The notes beneath the pieces were generated by a model. That model saw nothing but the letters and a program-made list of their open reading frames with translations, was not told the DNA's origin and did no database searches. A stretch of 44,747 nucleotides of DNA, from the NCBI GenBank assembly GCA_029912145.1, contig GCA_029912145.1_4350.1; one strand, given 5' to 3'. Of this stretch, positions 32,762 to 40,063 are shown piece by piece; within the stretch, counting starts at the first letter, position 1, and each line of letters starts with the position of its first letter. Origin of the DNA: Escherichia coli (GTDB lineage: Bacteria; Pseudomonadota; Gammaproteobacteria; Enterobacterales; Enterobacteriaceae). The position numbers and the translations under genes were made by a program.

Positions 32762-33174
32762 TGGGCTACTTTGAGGACTTAACAAAGGCGTTTGATGTGC
32801 CGCTGGTAGCCTTCGGAACCACCAACGGCATCAAGGTAGCGCTTGAAAACATCGACGCGCCGACGTCAACAGATACGCCGTATCTGGCAAGTTACATGTT
32901 GCTGGCGGATACCGAGCAGGCTGACTTATTCTTCACGGAACAACGCGCCGGTGTCTATCAGATAGACATTAACTACGCATCGGTGAAAGGTAGCGCGCCA
33001 ATCAATAAAATGGCAGACTTACTTAACACGGCGTTTAAATCAGGTAAGTCATTTTCACGTAACGACATCTGCGCCGAGGTTCAATCGGTTAGCCTGGGGC
33101 CGCTGATTGTAGAAAACGGATGGGCCAAAAGACCATTGTCAATTAACTTTATTGCATTCACCAAGAGGCTGTGA
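32758..33174 (+). CDS. Tail terminator protein (putative)
   Basis: Gene order immediately before the major tail gene. Confidence 0.45.
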   Translation: MMGYFEDLTKAFDVPLVAFGTTNGIKVALENIDAPTSTDTPYLASYMLLADTEQADLFFTEQRAGVYQIDINYASVKGSAPINKMADLLNTAFKSGKSFSRNDICAEVQSVSLGPLIVENGWAKRPLSINFIAFTKRL

Positions 33175-34343
33175 ATATGGCTACAACTCCTTTTAAGGGC
33201 GCGAATACCGCGCAATTCTATGTGGCGGAAACTACCCCGGGCGTAACACCGGCTAACCCGGTATGGTCGCCACTGCGTAACACAGGCGGCGTTCCTGCCA
33301 TTACCCGTGACACGCTGACCTCCAACGAACTGGACGGCAGCCGCGAAACTACATCCATCCGCACCGGTAACAAGCAGGTTAGCGGTGAATATGCTATTGA
33401 GCTTAGCTCGAAAAGCCAGGATGACTGGCTAGCCGGGGCTTTAGGCTCTACGTGGCGGGCTGGCGTATCTCTGTCAGGGCTATCGATTACCGTCGCACCG
33501 GCTGGCAAGACGTTCACACGTGCCACCGGCAACTTTATCACTGACAAAGTTAGGGTAGGCGACCTGATTGCGTTTACCGATTTAACTGGCGATAATGCAA
33601 AACCATTTATTGTTACTGCAGTAACGGCTATGGTTGTTACTGGTGCAGGCATCCAACACACCCTGACCACCGAGACAAAAACTAGTAAGGCTAAAACTGG
33701 CTACACGCTGGAAACCGGTAATACGTGTAAGACGTTCTCTATCCTTACCTGGTACAAAGGCCAGTGCGGCGGTACTGACGCGTACACGTTAACCAAAGGC
33801 GTGGAAGTTTCTGGTTTTACCATCGAACAGGCTGTTAACGCGATGGTAACTGGCAGCTTCCCATTCATCGGTCGCAGTCAGGAGATTCTCACCACGCTGC
33901 CGACCGGTTCCAACTTCTCATCTGTTACTTTTGGTGATGAGCCGTTTTCTTCGGTTGACGTTTCCGTGTTCGATGGTTCTACGCCGTTGCGATGCGACAG
34001 TCTGACTATCACCAACGATAACAGCGCGTCCGCGCAGTTCGAACTTGGTAACACTAACGTAGCGTTTGTTGAGCGTAGCCGCGCGGCTAACACTTTCTCC
34101 ATCTCCGGCAAGCTGTACGACATGGTGATGATTCAGAAGTTTATCAACGAACAGCAGGTAGAGATTAACTCTATTCTGGCGGGGGTAAACGGGGCTATGT
34201 CTTTCAGTTTGAAACGCGCAGAGCTTACAGCAGTAACACCAGAGATTGGCGGACCCGAGTCAATCACTCAGTCCATTGAGGGGCAGGCCACCGGCAACCA
34301 GTACCAGTCGTCTATCGTAATTCAACGTATCACCTACGCATAA
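33171..34343 (+). CDS. Major tail protein
   Basis: 390 aa ORF preceding the tail chaperone and tape-measure genes; strong terminator downstream. Confidence 0.7.
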   Translation: MNMATTPFKGANTAQFYVAETTPGVTPANPVWSPLRNTGGVPAITRDTLTSNELDGSRETTSIRTGNKQVSGEYAIELSSKSQDDWLAGALGSTWRAGVSLSGLSITVAPAGKTFTRATGNFITDKVRVGDLIAFTDLTGDNAKPFIVTAVTAMVVTGAGIQHTLTTETKTSKAKTGYTLETGNTCKTFSILTWYKGQCGGTDAYTLTKGVEVSGFTIEQAVNAMVTGSFPFIGRSQEILTTLPTGSNFSSVTFGDEPFSSVDVSVFDGSTPLRCDSLTITNDNSASAQFELGNTNVAFVERSRAANTFSISGKLYDMVMIQKFINEQQVEINSILAGVNGAMSFSLKRAELTAVTPEIGGPESITQSIEGQATGNQYQSSIVIQRITYA

Positions 34344-34347
34344 AACT

Positions 34348-34373
34348 AAGGCCCCTTTCGGGGCCTTTTTCTT
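34348..34373. terminator. Bidirectional terminator between the major tail gene and the antisense cassette (AAGGCCCC-TTTC-GGGGCCTT with T-rich tracts on both sides)
   Basis: Read directly. Confidence 0.65.
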
Positions 34374-34926
34374 ACAAACCTAATTTTAAAGCAATGTCTA
34401 TAACGTTCGATTTAACGTCACCCGGTATGATGTAGGTGTCGTAATCTTTTACACCACTAACATCATACAGATAGCCACGGCTATCGCCGATGAACGTATA
34501 GCCGTCACGATGGAGGCGAACGATTTGCACGTCATGCCCTGCGGCGACGATAGGGGCAACTTCACTGGCGAATCCACCGTCGGACACTACAAAAACTTCG
34601 TCGCCGTCAGGCAAGTTTTCAGCAAGATACTTACCGAAATAATCATCGCCGAATACCGGTTTAATGAATTGCTCAGAAATGGCAATCATTAACTGGCGGC
34701 GGGACAACCCATTAAGAAAACCCTCGGGTTTTTCTTTCCGCGCCCGGTCGTCGTAGCCGTCGAGAAATTCGTGGTAAGCATCCTGGCCTAACGCTGCCAA
34801 AGCAATATTGAACATTGGATTCTTGAAACTGGTAGTTCCTTTCGCAAAGCCCATTTCTACCAGCGCCATAGCAAGCGTGTCTTTCCCGCAACCCGCAGGG
34901 CCATTAAGAATAATTACCTTAGCCAT
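34372..34926 (-). CDS. P-loop nucleotide/polynucleotide kinase (dNMP-kinase-like)
   Basis: Walker A GPAGCGKDT near the N-terminus; 184 aa; last gene of the antisense cassette. Confidence 0.65.
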   Translation of the reverse strand: MAKVIILNGPAGCGKDTLAMALVEMGFAKGTTSFKNPMFNIALAALGQDAYHEFLDGYDDRARKEKPEGFLNGLSRRQLMIAISEQFIKPVFGDDYFGKYLAENLPDGDEVFVVSDGGFASEVAPIVAAGHDVQIVRLHRDGYTFIGDSRGYLYDVSGVKDYDTYIIPGDVKSNVIDIALKLGL

Positions 34927-35414
34927 TATTTATCGCTCCCGTGTGGTTTTAAGTGTGTAGAGTTCCCGTTACAGTCGTATTCGGTAACTGCGTGTGCGGT
35001 TATGCCGAGGTCACGGAAATGCTTTATTACCGCTGGAGAGTCGTCGAACGCACACAAGATTCTTTCCAGTCCGAAAGCACGCAACACCTCTTCTTTAATT
35101 ACGATGTCTTTTCTGTTGTCGTGTTTGCTGCGCATGATTAGCGTGTCAAACCTAACGTTATTTTCTCGTAACCATTCGCGAGTCTCCTCCTCAGCGTCAT
35201 CACTTCGCCCGGTAAGGATAATTATAGTAAGTCCGGAATGCCACAGTACGCTACACAAATGGATATTGTCGTATATCGGAGCGTCATCTTTGCAGGCCAT
35301 GTTAAATGGCTTCCACGCCCACGTTTCTCCGTAGTTATCTTTTGGTAACAGGTGTAAGCGATGGGTACCGTCGGCCAATGTCCCGTCTAAATCGAAAATT
35401 ACAATATCTTTCAT
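34926..35414 (-). CDS. HAD-superfamily phosphatase resembling the 3-prime-phosphatase domain of T4 polynucleotide kinase
   Basis: N-terminal DxDGT motif (IVIFDLDGTLA) and downstream segments resembling the T4 Pnk phosphatase domain as recalled; 162 aa; not alignment-verified. Confidence 0.65.
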   Translation of the reverse strand: MKDIVIFDLDGTLADGTHRLHLLPKDNYGETWAWKPFNMACKDDAPIYDNIHLCSVLWHSGLTIIILTGRSDDAEEETREWLRENNVRFDTLIMRSKHDNRKDIVIKEEVLRAFGLERILCAFDDSPAVIKHFRDLGITAHAVTEYDCNGNSTHLKPHGSDK

Positions 35415-36541
35415 CCCAGCATCTCCGGTGAAATAGTTAAACGTGCGACCTCGCCATATTCGGCGCTATAAGTAATTACATTTGCACTGCGGCCCGACAT
35501 CCATCCGCCGCGAGAGGCGTAGGCGTCTTTAGCCGCTAAGGTGCGGTGTTGCTCAACAATCATGTTACGGCTTTCTACAATCTTCTGGTGGTGCAGATGG
35601 CCTACGTGGGCGTAGCTGTAAACACTCTCGCCGAACGCTTTACGGAACTTGGCAATCATAACCGGTTCGATAGCGTCGAATCGTGCTTTATGCCCGTGAT
35701 GGAAGAACAGCGTCGTTTTGCCGTGTTGCACCATCTTGTAAACATCCGGCGACGTATCGACGAATACACGAGGCTCGTTGTCGTACAGTGTGCTGAACAT
35801 CTCCGCCAGCCAAATCATCCCGGATTCGTCGTGGTTCCCCTGAACTATAAGCAAGCGAACAGTTTTATGCTTAACCAGAGCCATATCAACAACACGGCGG
35901 ACCATGCGAATCATGTAGCGGACAAGTTTCTGGTAACGCGTGTCGGCGTCAAGGACATGACCACTCGCCGGTGTAACGGCGTCAAGACTATCGAAGTGAG
36001 CTAAGTCGCCAAGAAGATTAATAACCCCCGTACCTGCATCCGGTGCTTTCTGAAACGCAGCATCAAGCCAACGAGAGAATAAGTCCTCCGCGATTTTCAT
36101 ATCCCAGTCGTCGCCGCTCTCGTCAGCCCAGGCTAACATACCGAGATGGAAATCAGATACCGTGTAAAGATTGAGTAGTTTATCGTCACGTTTGGCTCGT
36201 GCCGGTTTAACAGGCGCAACGGGCGTAATCTCTGACTTCATGCCCTCTATTACGGCTTTCATCAATTCAACCTGACGTTCGGCATCAGCGTCGGTCTTAA
36301 CCCATTGCAACTTAGTGTTGCCGAACTCGTCCACCAGGGACGACGTTCCTTTAATCTTGTAACCGTCTGGTACAAGGTGACTAACGTCGCGCCCGTGGCC
36401 TACGCCTTTCTTAGCCAGCTTCGCTTTACGGATTCGGATAACGCGGTCTGAGATTCCGTATTTACGGGCGATATCGATATTCTTCATCCCGGCGTTCAAT
36501 TCTTCCTGTAATTGCTCGTCGGTTATTTTCTTCTGGGCCAT
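35411..36541 (-). CDS. Metallophosphoesterase (calcineurin-like, Mre11/SbcD-type motifs) with N-terminal HTH-like segment
   Basis: Motifs DFHLG, GDLAHFD, GNHDE, GHLHH; start at the internal ATG (36541) with RBS GAGGAA; track ORF extends to 36646. Confidence 0.7.
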   Translation of the reverse strand: MAQKKITDEQLQEELNAGMKNIDIARKYGISDRVIRIRKAKLAKKGVGHGRDVSHLVPDGYKIKGTSSLVDEFGNTKLQWVKTDADAERQVELMKAVIEGMKSEITPVAPVKPARAKRDDKLLNLYTVSDFHLGMLAWADESGDDWDMKIAEDLFSRWLDAAFQKAPDAGTGVINLLGDLAHFDSLDAVTPASGHVLDADTRYQKLVRYMIRMVRRVVDMALVKHKTVRLLIVQGNHDESGMIWLAEMFSTLYDNEPRVFVDTSPDVYKMVQHGKTTLFFHHGHKARFDAIEPVMIAKFRKAFGESVYSYAHVGHLHHQKIVESRNMIVEQHRTLAAKDAYASRGGWMSGRSANVITYSAEYGEVARLTISPEMLG

Positions 36542-36579
36542 GCTTACTTCCTCGTGTTTAGGATTTGTCTTATAGTAGC

Positions 36580-36771
36580 CTACTTCTCTTTCACGTTCGA
36601 GTTGCAAGCCCAGATTAAAATGAATACCCACGGCAACAGAATCCACCCGAGAAATAAGTTAGCCATGAATATCGCCAGCTTTGCTTTATGGTTACGCATA
36701 TGTGCCACCAAAAACGGGATAAAATAAACGGCTACAAAAATAATTAAGAAGAACATAGTGATACCGGTCAT
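36580..36771 (-). CDS. Superinfection-immunity (Imm)-like small membrane protein
   Basis: Motif RNHKAKLAIFMANLFLGWILLPWVFILIWA matches the Imm-superinfection family signature as recalled; RBS AGGAG before ATG at 36771. Confidence 0.55.
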   Translation of the reverse strand: MTGITMFFLIIFVAVYFIPFLVAHMRNHKAKLAIFMANLFLGWILLPWVFILIWACNSNVKEK

Positions 36772-36813
36772 AACATAACTCCTGATTTGAGATAACATCG
36801 TTGGTGTAAGTGA

Positions 36814-36949: not shown

Positions 36950-37366
36950 ATGAAACTTTCTGATTTTTATTACGAAGCGGAAGCCGAAAAGGGCGCACGT
37001 ATGCCGATACCGCTAAAAGACGGTACTGATTCCGGGGAATGGCTTAATGTTGTTTCTCCTGAGGCGGACGTTGCCGTTAAGGCTATGCGCGCGTTCACCC
37101 TTGCATACCGGGCAGTATTAGGGAAATTAAAACCGCTTCGTGATAAGTGCGAAGAGATGAAAGATTTCTCTGAATACAACCTGAAGATGGAAGACGCGGC
37201 GACGGACCTTAACCGTCAGTTAGCGATTGAATTGGTTAACGGGTGGAGCCTTGACGACGAATTCAATAAAGAGAATCTGAACACACTCCTGACGCAATAT
37301 AAACGACTCGCGGAACTTGTTGTTGTGTTTCATAACGAACAACTGCACCAGCTACAGGAAAAGTAG
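36950..37366 (+). CDS. Tail assembly chaperone (gpG-like)
   Basis: Position between major tail and tape-measure genes. Confidence 0.6.
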   Translation: MKLSDFYYEAEAEKGARMPIPLKDGTDSGEWLNVVSPEADVAVKAMRAFTLAYRAVLGKLKPLRDKCEEMKDFSEYNLKMEDAATDLNRQLAIELVNGWSLDDEFNKENLNTLLTQYKRLAELVVVFHNEQLHQLQEK

Positions 37367-37371
37367 ACGCG

Positions 37372-37731
37372 TTGCTCCAGTTCGCCCGTTGGAACTTCAT
37401 AACCCGCCACAAACGGCGGGAATTTGACAGTATCGCCGATGGGCATAAAGCCGCGCTAATTGCTATGGGGGTTATGCAAGACGCGCCGGATGCAACGCAG
37501 GCCGCTGGGCCGGAATGCCCCCCTGAGCTACTAACCACATTTGAGAAGTACAGGGAAATTAAATTCACCCGCCGAGTGGACGACGACGGCATCAAGATGT
37601 ACCCGCGCGAGCAATTACGATGGTCAGATTTAGTGGCGTACAGCACCGTTTCAGGCCAGAATATAGGGATGTTCGAATCCGACATCATCATGAGCTTAGA
37701 CGCTATTTTCGAGGGTAGAAACGATGGCTGA
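37372..37731 (+). CDS. Tail assembly chaperone, second ORF (gpT-like), in the -1 frame relative to the first; possibly expressed as a G-T fusion by frameshifting
   Basis: No ATG start (track start is TTG); -1 frame overlaps the end of the upstream ORF; overlaps the tape-measure start. Confidence 0.5.
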   Translation: MLQFARWNFITRHKRREFDSIADGHKAALIAMGVMQDAPDATQAAGPECPPELLTTFEKYREIKFTRRVDDDGIKMYPREQLRWSDLVAYSTVSGQNIGMFESDIIMSLDAIFEGRNDG

Positions 37732-40063
37732 TGTAGCTAGTTTAGTAGTAAAAGTAACAGAGCAAGGCGCGAAAGCCACATCAGACCGTCTTGACAACCT
37801 TTCAAAGTCCGCAAAAGTAGCGGGGGCCGCCGTAGCAGGCCTTGCTTCTATCGTAGCGGCTACCGCGTATAAAGCTGCCCAAGAACTGGTTGACTCACAG
37901 CGGCAACTGGACAAGATGTCCGCCAGTTTGAAGACCTTAACAGGAAGTACCCAAGGTGCTAAACAGGCGCTAAGTATCCTGCAAGATTTTGCCCGCGATA
38001 CCCCATACGGACTGGAGCAGGCGGTGGAAGGCTTCCGTAAGCTGGTGGCCCTTGGCCTTACCCCATCCGAGGAGGCGTTGCGGTCCTACGGCAATACCGC
38101 ATCGGCTATGGGCAAGGACCTTAATCAGATGATTGAGGCGGTAGCCGACGCCAGTACGTTTGAGTTCGAACGCCTAAAAGAATTCGGCATCAAAGCCAAG
38201 CAGAACAAAAACGACGTAGAGTTTACATTCCAGGGGACAACAACCGTAGTTAAGAAAAGCGCTGCCGATATTGAGCAGTATTTACTTAATATTGGTAACG
38301 TAAATTTTGCCGGTGCCATGGCGGACCAGGCCAACACCCTTAATGGCGCTATCGCGAGCGCCAGTGACTCATGGTCGCAGCTAAAAATGACGCTTGCCAC
38401 CAGTCTTGATGTTGGCGCACTTGCGGAACCTATCAGGTATATCTGTGACTTGATCCAGGAATTAAACGCATCTGTTGCTTCCGGTGAATTAGCCGCTGAA
38501 ATGCAGATGTGGGGCGACATAGCGTCGGAAGTAGGAAGCGCTATCGAGATGTCATTCGACGCTGCGTTTGGCTTTGTTGGTGATGCCATCAACGGGCTTA
38601 ATGAACTGTGGGATTTCAGCAGCAAGAGTATTACCGATAGCGGAGAACAAACGGCCACCACCATCGCTGAATCCGCCGCCGATGCTCTTGACTTCATCGC
38701 GGAAGAGTTCACCGCGATGGAGAGATTCTTTGAAGATATGGTTAAAGGTGCTCAGGACGCTGGCCGTCTTGTACGCGCCGCTTTTACCCCCGGGGAATCA
38801 GTAGACGTAGCTAAAAATATCAACTTCCAGCTTGGCATGGCTTTGGATACCCAGCGCGATATCGCCGACGTTACGCGTAAAAGTTTCCGCGAACAGGTAG
38901 AAGCTCAACAGGATATTGTAGCGTTAAAACGCGCGGCGTATGACATCGATAAGGAGTCCGCAAAAGCTGAGGGGTTAAACAAATTTAAGGTAACCGGAAC
39001 CGGCGGCGGTTCTGACGATGACGGGTCAGCCGCAAAAGCCGCTAAGAAAGCAGCGGACGCGTTCAAGCGCCAGAAAAAGGCGGCGGAAGACTTCTACTAT
39101 CAGTCAATCCATCTTAATGATGACGTATTTCAGAAAATAGAAGCTAACCAGGAAGAGCAACTGTCTAAGTTGCAGGATTTTTATAGCAATAAGCTTCTTA
39201 GCGACCAACAGTACGAAAACGCCAAGACGCAGATTATGCTCTCTGCCGAACAGGCCCGCCAGGAAGAACTGGACAAGAAAAGGAAAGAAGCCCAGGAGAA
39301 GCAGCAGAAAGGTGATGATTTCATGGCTCAGATTATGGGCCAGAACGCCACCGAGCTTGAGCTTCTGGATATTCAGGAACAGCAGAAACTGGCGGTAGCC
39401 GATAAGTACCGGGAACAAGGTCTGATTAGCGAGAAGCAGTATCAGGCCGCGCTTAACGCCATCAACGAGCAGTACGCAACCAAGCGTGCCGACGCAACGG
39501 CAACAGCTTTCGGTAACATGGCTTCAAACATCGGGTCTGCGTTGGGCGAGGCTTCTGGTGCGTACAAGGCATTCGCTATCGTACAGGCCACTATAGCCAC
39601 GTACACCGCAGCTATCGAGGCGTACAAGTCAACGGCTGCTATCCCTGTTGTTGGCCCGTTCCTGGCCCCTGTAGCCGCTGCCGCTGCCGTCGGGGCAGGT
39701 ATGGCGCAGATTTCCGCTATCAGGTCAGCACGTGAACAGGGTGGACAGTTATCCGCCGGGCAGGCTTCCACCATCGCTGAACGCGGTAAACCCGAAGTTA
39801 TCATGCCCGCTGGCGCATCGCGTGTGCGCACCGCGCAGCAGATGAAAGAAATTATGGGGCAAAACGGGTCTTCTTCCGGCCCATCTAATGTTACCATTGT
39901 AAATAATACATCGAGTCAGATTGGCAACGTATCCACCGAGCAGGATGATGAAGGCCGTCTGCGTATCATCATAGAAGAGCAAGTTGCTGCATCTTTGCAG
40001 AACAGCAACAGTAAGATTAGCAAGGCCCGCAAGGCCACAAGAAACGCGCCGGGGTTTAAATAA
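37724..40063 (+). CDS. Tail tape measure protein
   Basis: 779 aa, Ala/Gln/Glu-rich with coiled-coil regions and C-terminal hydrophobic/Gly-rich segment; position. Confidence 0.85.
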   Translation: MADVASLVVKVTEQGAKATSDRLDNLSKSAKVAGAAVAGLASIVAATAYKAAQELVDSQRQLDKMSASLKTLTGSTQGAKQALSILQDFARDTPYGLEQAVEGFRKLVALGLTPSEEALRSYGNTASAMGKDLNQMIEAVADASTFEFERLKEFGIKAKQNKNDVEFTFQGTTTVVKKSAADIEQYLLNIGNVNFAGAMADQANTLNGAIASASDSWSQLKMTLATSLDVGALAEPIRYICDLIQELNASVASGELAAEMQMWGDIASEVGSAIEMSFDAAFGFVGDAINGLNELWDFSSKSITDSGEQTATTIAESAADALDFIAEEFTAMERFFEDMVKGAQDAGRLVRAAFTPGESVDVAKNINFQLGMALDTQRDIADVTRKSFREQVEAQQDIVALKRAAYDIDKESAKAEGLNKFKVTGTGGGSDDDGSAAKAAKKAADAFKRQKKAAEDFYYQSIHLNDDVFQKIEANQEEQLSKLQDFYSNKLLSDQQYENAKTQIMLSAEQARQEELDKKRKEAQEKQQKGDDFMAQIMGQNATELELLDIQEQQKLAVADKYREQGLISEKQYQAALNAINEQYATKRADATATAFGNMASNIGSALGEASGAYKAFAIVQATIATYTAAIEAYKSTAAIPVVGPFLAPVAAAAAVGAGMAQISAIRSAREQGGQLSAGQASTIAERGKPEVIMPAGASRVRTAQQMKEIMGQNGSSSGPSNVTIVNNTSSQIGNVSTEQDDEGRLRIIIEEQVAASLQNSNSKISKARKATRNAPGFK

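Follow-up and report, generated by a model that had tools for sequence, protein, structure and literature searches.

The two tail assembly chaperone ORFs described here, ORF1 and ORF2, are very probably joined by a -1 ribosomal slip on the tetramer A_AAG next to the stop codon of ORF1, a reading that rests on comparison of the junction with those of related phages. In that comparison, the conserved unit is the tetramer A_AAG together with the stop, and not a heptamer. A frameshift in this chaperone pair is not a new proposal, as phages of the genus that have an identical junction have carried this annotation for a long time. What is new is that conflicting annotations of the pair are resolved in favour of the frameshift, and that its signal is defined more narrowly.

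The 901 bases around the junction are 100% identical to Escherichia phage VB_EcoS-Golestan (Kagunavirus, Guernseyvirinae) and to several near-identical isolates. The locus matched 386 phage records by DNA and 516 by the ORF1 protein, mostly of Salmonella Jerseyvirus and Escherichia Kagunavirus. By standard decoding, ORF1 (36950-37366, plus strand) encodes a G-like tail assembly chaperone of 138 aa, with an SD sequence AAGGA 6 nt 5' of its ATG. It matches Pfam PF08748 (Phage_TAC_4) with 32.5 bits, for a curated cut-off of 21.1, and it also matches phrog_313. The T-like part in the -1 frame (37363-37731, plus strand, 122 codons and a stop) belongs to PF23812 (Phage_TAC_18), ORF2 scoring 66.9 bits with an E value of 1.8e-18, and matches phrog_4557 (E 4e-62). 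Both ORFs are covered by phrog_15027, a single profile of 259 positions, of which 1-138 correspond to ORF1 and 136-259 to ORF2. This indicates that fused forms of the pair are already present in databases.

The chaperone pair lies directly upstream of the gene for the 779-aa tape measure protein (37724-40063, plus strand; phrog_1538, E 2.6e-205), whose ATG overlaps the ORF2 stop (ATGGCTGA). This overlap (37724-37731) would be reached by translation only in the frame-shifted minority of ribosomes, and the tape measure gene has its own SD sequence, GAGGG, 8 nt upstream. The tail tube gene (33171-34343, PF18906) is found upstream of the chaperone pair, but four minus-strand genes (34372-36798) stand between them. 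This block of 2.4 kb, or 2.6 kb of DNA with its flanks, breaks the usual tube-G-T-tape measure order. Its genes encode a P-loop protein of 184 aa with no Pfam match, a PNKP-type HAD phosphatase, a metallophosphoesterase annotated as “DNA repair exonuclease”, and a T4 Imm-like superinfection immunity protein. At the same place, Serratia phage Eta and phage Shemara have one small gene only. No phage-encoded tRNA was found.

ORF1 ends with CAG GAA AAG TAG (37355-37366), and CAGGAAAAGTAG is located at the ORF1/ORF2 junction. An earlier note on this DNA had placed ORF2 in the -1 frame relative to ORF1, which is borne out by the sequence and by the ORF list (37372 = 1 mod 3, 36950 = 2 mod 3). After a TAA at 37333-37335, the -1 frame is open from 37336 to the TGA at 37729-37731, such that it overlaps ORF1 by 28 nt before the stop, close to the 30 nt that had been estimated, and continues for 122 codons past the slip point. 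ORF2 had also been described as having no ATG. There is indeed none before 37465, the first ATG of this frame, but it would be untrue that a start codon is missing: a TTG is present at 37372, and it is the start retained in the ORF list, in RefSeq and in most GenBank records.

No canonical X_XXY_YYZ heptamer is present in the overlap, and there is no other homopolymeric run in 37336-37366. The heptamer G-GAA-AAG (37357-37363, plus strand), which the earlier note had put forward while pointing out that it is not canonical, is indeed not of the X_XXY_YYZ form; the known class of Z_ZZN tetramers answers this worry. In GAA AAG (37358-37363), AAG is read as a 0-frame codon, and the A_AAG that includes it (37360-37363, plus strand; the last base of GAA and the Lys codon) is a Z_ZZN tetramer, kept in relatives. 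Directly 3' of this slip site is the 0-frame stop TAG (37364-37366, plus strand), a “shifty stop” whose adjacency is conserved and which overlaps the first -1 codon, GUA (37363-37365). AAAGTAR is not rare per se, as it is seen 15 times in the window, that is, the whole stretch of 44,747 nt analysed, for 11.4 expected; its position and its conservation are what go beyond chance. The predicted fusion (36950-37363 joined to 37363-37731) has 260 aa, and its junction reads ...LQEK/VDALLQFAR..., where the slash marks the change of frame.

The earlier note had proposed comparing the junction among related phages. Loci were collected for this comparison from IMG/VR, 27 and then 80, plus nine from GenBank (36 + 80), down to approximately 45% identity of the fusion protein. 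Each ORF1 was read from where the match begins to its stop, without requiring any motif. In the 80 loci the -1 arrangement and NNA_AAG proved to be conserved. ORF1 had 138 codons in nearly all complete loci, and every complete locus had behind it a -1 ORF of approximately 121-122 codons. The motif-free walk to the ORF1 stop ended on NNA_AAG in every complete related locus. The last seven bases differed (GGAAAAG, GGCAAAG, CGCAAAG, AGCAAAG, GGTAAAG, GTCAAAG, GGGAAAG and AAAAAAG), whereas the last four were always AAAG. A stop, TAG or TAA, followed AAG directly in all complete loci except L089, where it is found one codon later (AAG TTA TAG) and where the -1 frame still reads V-I-A-L-Y.

The second ORF was in the -1 frame in all loci, without a conserved start of its own. 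At the position of the RefSeq ORF2 start (37372), 21 of 23 lineages have CTG in place of TTG, and in many lineages no ATG, GTG or TTG occurs in the -1 frame until 89-140 nt after the stop. From the junction onward, the peptide K-V-x-A-L-Y-x-F-A is conserved. Taken together, the conservation at synonymous sites described below, the CTG codon, the distant starts and the conserved peptide make independent initiation unlikely as a general explanation, and a -1 shift at A_AAG is the best explanation for them. The overlap between ORF1 and the -1 frame ranges from 7 to 205 nt across loci. In L085 and L092, the -1 frame opens just 7 nt before the stop, so that a shift there must fall on C_GCA_AAG. Elsewhere, canonical heptamers occupy the homologous site: G_GGA_AAG, which is that of λ, in L069, and A_AAA_AAG in L099 and L100 (IMG/VR 3300027985). 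Within a single family, the site thus drifts between a bare tetramer and a full heptamer.

Conservation at synonymous sites was analysed in a reduced set of 23 lineages having less than 85% nucleotide identity (mean 58%). The 94 codon columns that surround the junction contain six third positions without any variation, one of them in a Trp codon. The other five are all in a 17-nt block: the final A of codon 137 and the third bases of AAG (G), GUA (A), GCG (G) and YUG (G). Codon 137 always ended in A, whether it encoded Glu, Ala, Val, Ser or Lys, A being the rarest third base (19%) elsewhere in these genes. Codon 138 was always AAG, AAA accounting for 45% of the Lys codons elsewhere in the same genes. 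Third positions vary in the 0 frame up to the junction, and precisely from there on it is those of the -1 frame that vary. In this frame-switch analysis, the filter on loci required AAAG and a stop, such that the invariance at -4 to +2 is circular and the rest is not; the unbiased evidence for AAAG and the stop is that of the motif-free ORF1 walks.

That the slip occurs, how often, in the P or in the A site, and which roles G and GT would have, we infer as follows. Most ribosomes would terminate at the TAG (37364-37366) and produce the 138-aa chaperone, the presumed counterpart of λ gpG. A minority would slip back by one base, with tRNA-Lys on AAG (37361-37363); the tRNA would re-pair with AAA (37360-37362), and decoding would resume at GUA, at 37363. 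The shifted product would be the 260-aa fusion, a counterpart of gpGT, the C-terminal 122 residues of which would be the Phage_TAC_18 domain. The signal would be the minimal tetramer A_AAG, and not a heptamer for tandem slippage, and the stop that follows it immediately probably contributes by making the ribosome pause while peptidyl-tRNA-Lys occupies the P site. If λ is a guide, the G portion shared by the two proteins would coat the tape measure protein, the T portion would bring in the tail tube protein, and neither the G nor the GT counterpart would end up in the virion.

In E. coli, AAG is read by tRNA-Lys(UUU) only. This point is also discussed in a reporter study (PMC4066793), in which A_AA.G was the most shift-prone tetramer in E. 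coli, at 5.6% with a pseudoknot, and in which tetramers without a stimulator were barely above background. In the Atkins review (PMC5009743), Z_ZZN is given as the minimal -1 site.

The slip could also take another form, in which tRNA-Glu and tRNA-Lys move in tandem on G_GAA_AAG, the heptamer that the earlier note had proposed, the former from GAA to GGA and the latter from AAG to AAA. In this phage GGA would allow tRNA-Glu to re-pair, the middle position being a G:U, and GGAAAAG is kept in 12 of the 23 lineages. However, lineages having C_GCA_AAG, A_GCA_AAG or G_TCA_AAG keep the full arrangement. GCA or TCA before AAG offers no re-pairing to the P-site tRNA, which indicates that the common mechanism is not a tandem heptamer slip, and we hold the tandem form to be rather doubtful. 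The A_AAG part of the proposed site stands as conserved, and the heptamer itself is not the conserved unit. Since the stop is the only constant neighbour of the tetramer, the pattern of conservation leads us to favour a slip of peptidyl-tRNA-Lys in the P site, with UAG or UAA in the A site.

A different possibility is that ORF2 is made only as a separate protein of 119 aa, from the TTG at 37372, either de novo by means of a weak AGGA or by re-initiation after the TAG five bases upstream. This is how RefSeq and most GenBank records annotate it; the TTG is present, and the AGGA, 11 nt upstream and with -4.3 kcal/mol, is poor but not impossible. The constant 5-nt spacing between stop and YUG, and the invariant third position of YUG, are also as a restart codon would show. 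Yet CTG, the codon of 21 of the 23 lineages, is a very poor bacterial start, and lineages with the heptamers CGCAAAG, AGCAAAG or GTCAAAG have no AGGA. Separate synthesis would leave unexplained the invariant synonymous NNA_AAG, the canonical heptamers of L069, L099 and L100, and the strict -1 relation. By analogy with λ, a T domain devoid of G would in addition lack the part that binds the tape measure (PMC5009743). We consider that exclusive synthesis of a separate ORF2 protein is highly unlikely. The two routes could also operate side by side, the GT fusion being made by frameshift and some free T by re-initiation at UUG or CUG, with GCG-YUG kept for the second. The invariant third positions of GCG-YUG, which frameshift alone does not explain, and the constant spacing to the stop would fit such a scheme. 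However, the literature consulted gave no precedent for a free T protein, CUG is a very weak initiation codon, and GCG-YUG could just as well serve as 3' context or form the 5' side of a stem. Such a double origin appears extremely improbable to us, and the -1 slip on A_AAG next to the stop remains the preferred reading.

Other candidates were tried and rejected. For transcriptional slippage, only four A's are available here, and three in many lineages. Amber read-through in the 0 frame would meet a TAA 11 codons after the TAG, and the +1 frame is open for only 4-49 codons past the stop.

The GCG-YUG block (37369-37374, plus strand, at +5 to +10; GCGTTG in this phage), which includes the TTG of the RefSeq ORF2, is invariant in the 23 lineages, third positions included, and the spacing from stop to YUG is 5 nt in all of them. 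It can pair with conserved GAY-AGY codons located approximately 55 nt downstream. The candidate long-range stem (37371-37431, plus strand), in which 37371-37384 would pair with 37419-37431, starts 7 nt after the slip site. In this register (+7 to +20 with +55 to +67), 79.6% of cells were paired, versus 31-44% in slid registers. No covariation was detected in the candidate stem, and 169 of 500 shuffles reached the observed value, which indicates that column composition is enough to produce the pairing. The two arms both code for conserved peptides. Pairing with Y would explain the retention of G in the block. Neither a stem arm, nor a restart codon, nor a 3' context was found to account for the invariance of GCG-YUG.

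Consensus folding of the 23 lineages by RNAalifold gave essentially no structure (3 pairs, -0.14 kcal/mol). After randomisation of synonymous codons, the mean z of the junction region was -0.85, a value matched by control windows (-1.22 to +0.55), so that the excess of structure is not specific to the region. In this lineage, segment 37358-37470 folds remarkably well, with -40.1 kcal/mol (z -2.7, and -2.8 versus synonymous variants), and contains a perfect CCCGCC/GGCGGG hairpin (37403-37420); the other lineages of the family do not share this fold. Rfam gave no match, even at E = 10. An SD-like stimulator upstream of the slip site is absent in this lineage, and strong in only two of the 23. 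The shift in B. subtilis cdd relies on such an upstream SD-like sequence, and none is conserved here. Tentatively, it could be that Guernseyvirinae-type phages use a compact cassette made of A_AAG, the adjacent 0-frame stop and GCG-YUG at +5 to +10, without heptamer, conserved structure or SD-like sequence. Such a cassette would be a “-1 shifty stop”, and the G:GT ratio might be set by the kinetics of termination and by the short 3' context.

The arrangement is of the ordinary λ G/GT type (PMC5009743), and departs from one textbook trait of it in that the site is an A_AAG tetramer instead of X_XXY_YYZ. In λ, frameshift takes place on G_GGA_AAG (Levin et al. 1993; Xu et al. 2004, 2013, 2014; as cited in PMC5009743). 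As in λ, two overlapping ORFs immediately precede the tape measure gene, with the second in the -1 frame, the slip would take place where the first ORF ends, on an AAG codon for Lys, and an abundant short product and a rare fusion would be expected. The λ heptamer, GGGAAAG, is one base apart from the GGAAAAG found here, and the relative L069 has exactly that of λ. Unlike in λ, the heptamer does not begin with XXX, the slip site is immediately followed by the stop, and the 2.4-kb minus-strand block parts the tube gene from the chaperone gene. The families matched here are Phage_TAC_4 and Phage_TAC_18, and the likeness to λ is one of position, frame and logic. A search of PDB sequences for homology to λ gpG or gpT gave no match below E = 0.3. 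An AlphaFold model built from 5 sequences had a pLDDT of 52.7, too poor for a fold search.

Other Z_ZZN sites, such as A_AAG in elements of the IS3 and IS1 families and CGA_AAG in B. subtilis cdd (Mejlhede et al. 1999, as cited in PMC5009743), resemble this one in that a lone tRNA-Lys re-pairs from AAG to AAA, and in that the preceding codon need not re-pair (PMC4066793, PMC5009743). They differ in that the tetramers tested in reporters needed a pseudoknot stimulator (PMC4066793), whereas no such element is conserved here. The “shifty stop” systems have in common with the present site a conserved stop at or next to the shift site, which may act as a slow-to-decode codon in the A site. Those cited in PMC5009743 are the original description (Weiss et al. 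1987), prfB and antizyme, which are +1, and PEMV, with G_GAU_UUU_UGG_UAG, which is -1. In contrast to the present site, the well-studied cases are +1, and it is from its conservation that we ascribe a role to the stop here.

Closer relatives, namely the Kagunavirus phages K1ind2, K1ind3 and K1H, the Jerseyvirus Shelanagig and the Cornellvirus Shemara, have homologous genes with the same site and show no difference in kind. K1ind3 and Shelanagig have an identical CAGGAAAAGTAGACGCG, and the deposited fusions carry the junction EK/V that is predicted here. A joined CDS in two pieces covers the homologous pair in K1ind3 (ORF22A/22B), in K1H (ORF19A/19B), in Salmonella phage Shelanagig and in Shemara. 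We built the fusions of the relatives by reading ORF1 through its last AAG and then the -1 frame from the G of that AAG. Those of K1ind2/3, K1H, Shelanagig and Shemara were exact matches to ADA82468.1, ADA82316.1, YP_010747304.1 and YP_010582519.1. The predicted Golestan fusion had no exact match in the protein collection searched. The frameshift fusion that the earlier note had supposed thus gains support from the relatives, congeneric phages with an identical 12-nt junction having been deposited with a joined CDS.

Most of the related records examined nevertheless contain two separate CDSs. The RefSeq record of Golestan has two separate “tail assembly chaperone” CDSs; the Golestan paper makes no chaperone call for either ORF and mentions no frameshift (PMC7203180). 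Over hundreds of Guernseyvirinae records, the annotation of ORF2 is inconsistent: it is labelled as a hypothetical protein, as a second chaperone with a TTG start, as truncations of 87-88 aa or 110 aa from internal starts, or as part of a joined CDS. In the Shashou genome note, the same junction was read as having “no canonical slippery sequence” (PMC6776780). Two genome notes of a single laboratory draw contrary conclusions from this one junction. No experiment on the fusion, either proteomic or genetic, was found in the literature for any member of the Guernseyvirinae. In this group, annotators and prediction programs should accept A_AAG followed by a stop, and not demand X_XXY_YYZ. Approximately 23 diverged lineages keep a bare tetramer by a stop without any recognisable stimulator, which makes them a simple natural test case of how little sequence suffices for a low-level programmed -1 shift in enterobacteria.

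Some loci of the survey stand apart. In L006, L030 and L041 (Salmonella phage SS3e, NC_006940.2), ORF1 is in short pieces (37 + 100 codons), and a “tail assembly chaperone” of 258 nt is annotated. The broken ORF1 of the SS3e record probably reflects old sequencing errors and not biology. The distant ORF1 homologues of Vibrio phage BA3 (L038) and Serratia phage Serbin (L039), at 26-30% identity, also have a -1 ORF behind. An A_AAG is found near the end of their ORF1, within GTA_AAG_CAA_AAG in BA3 and CGA_AAG in Serbin, neither of which abuts the stop. The CGA_AAG of Serbin is the same hexamer as that of B. subtilis cdd.
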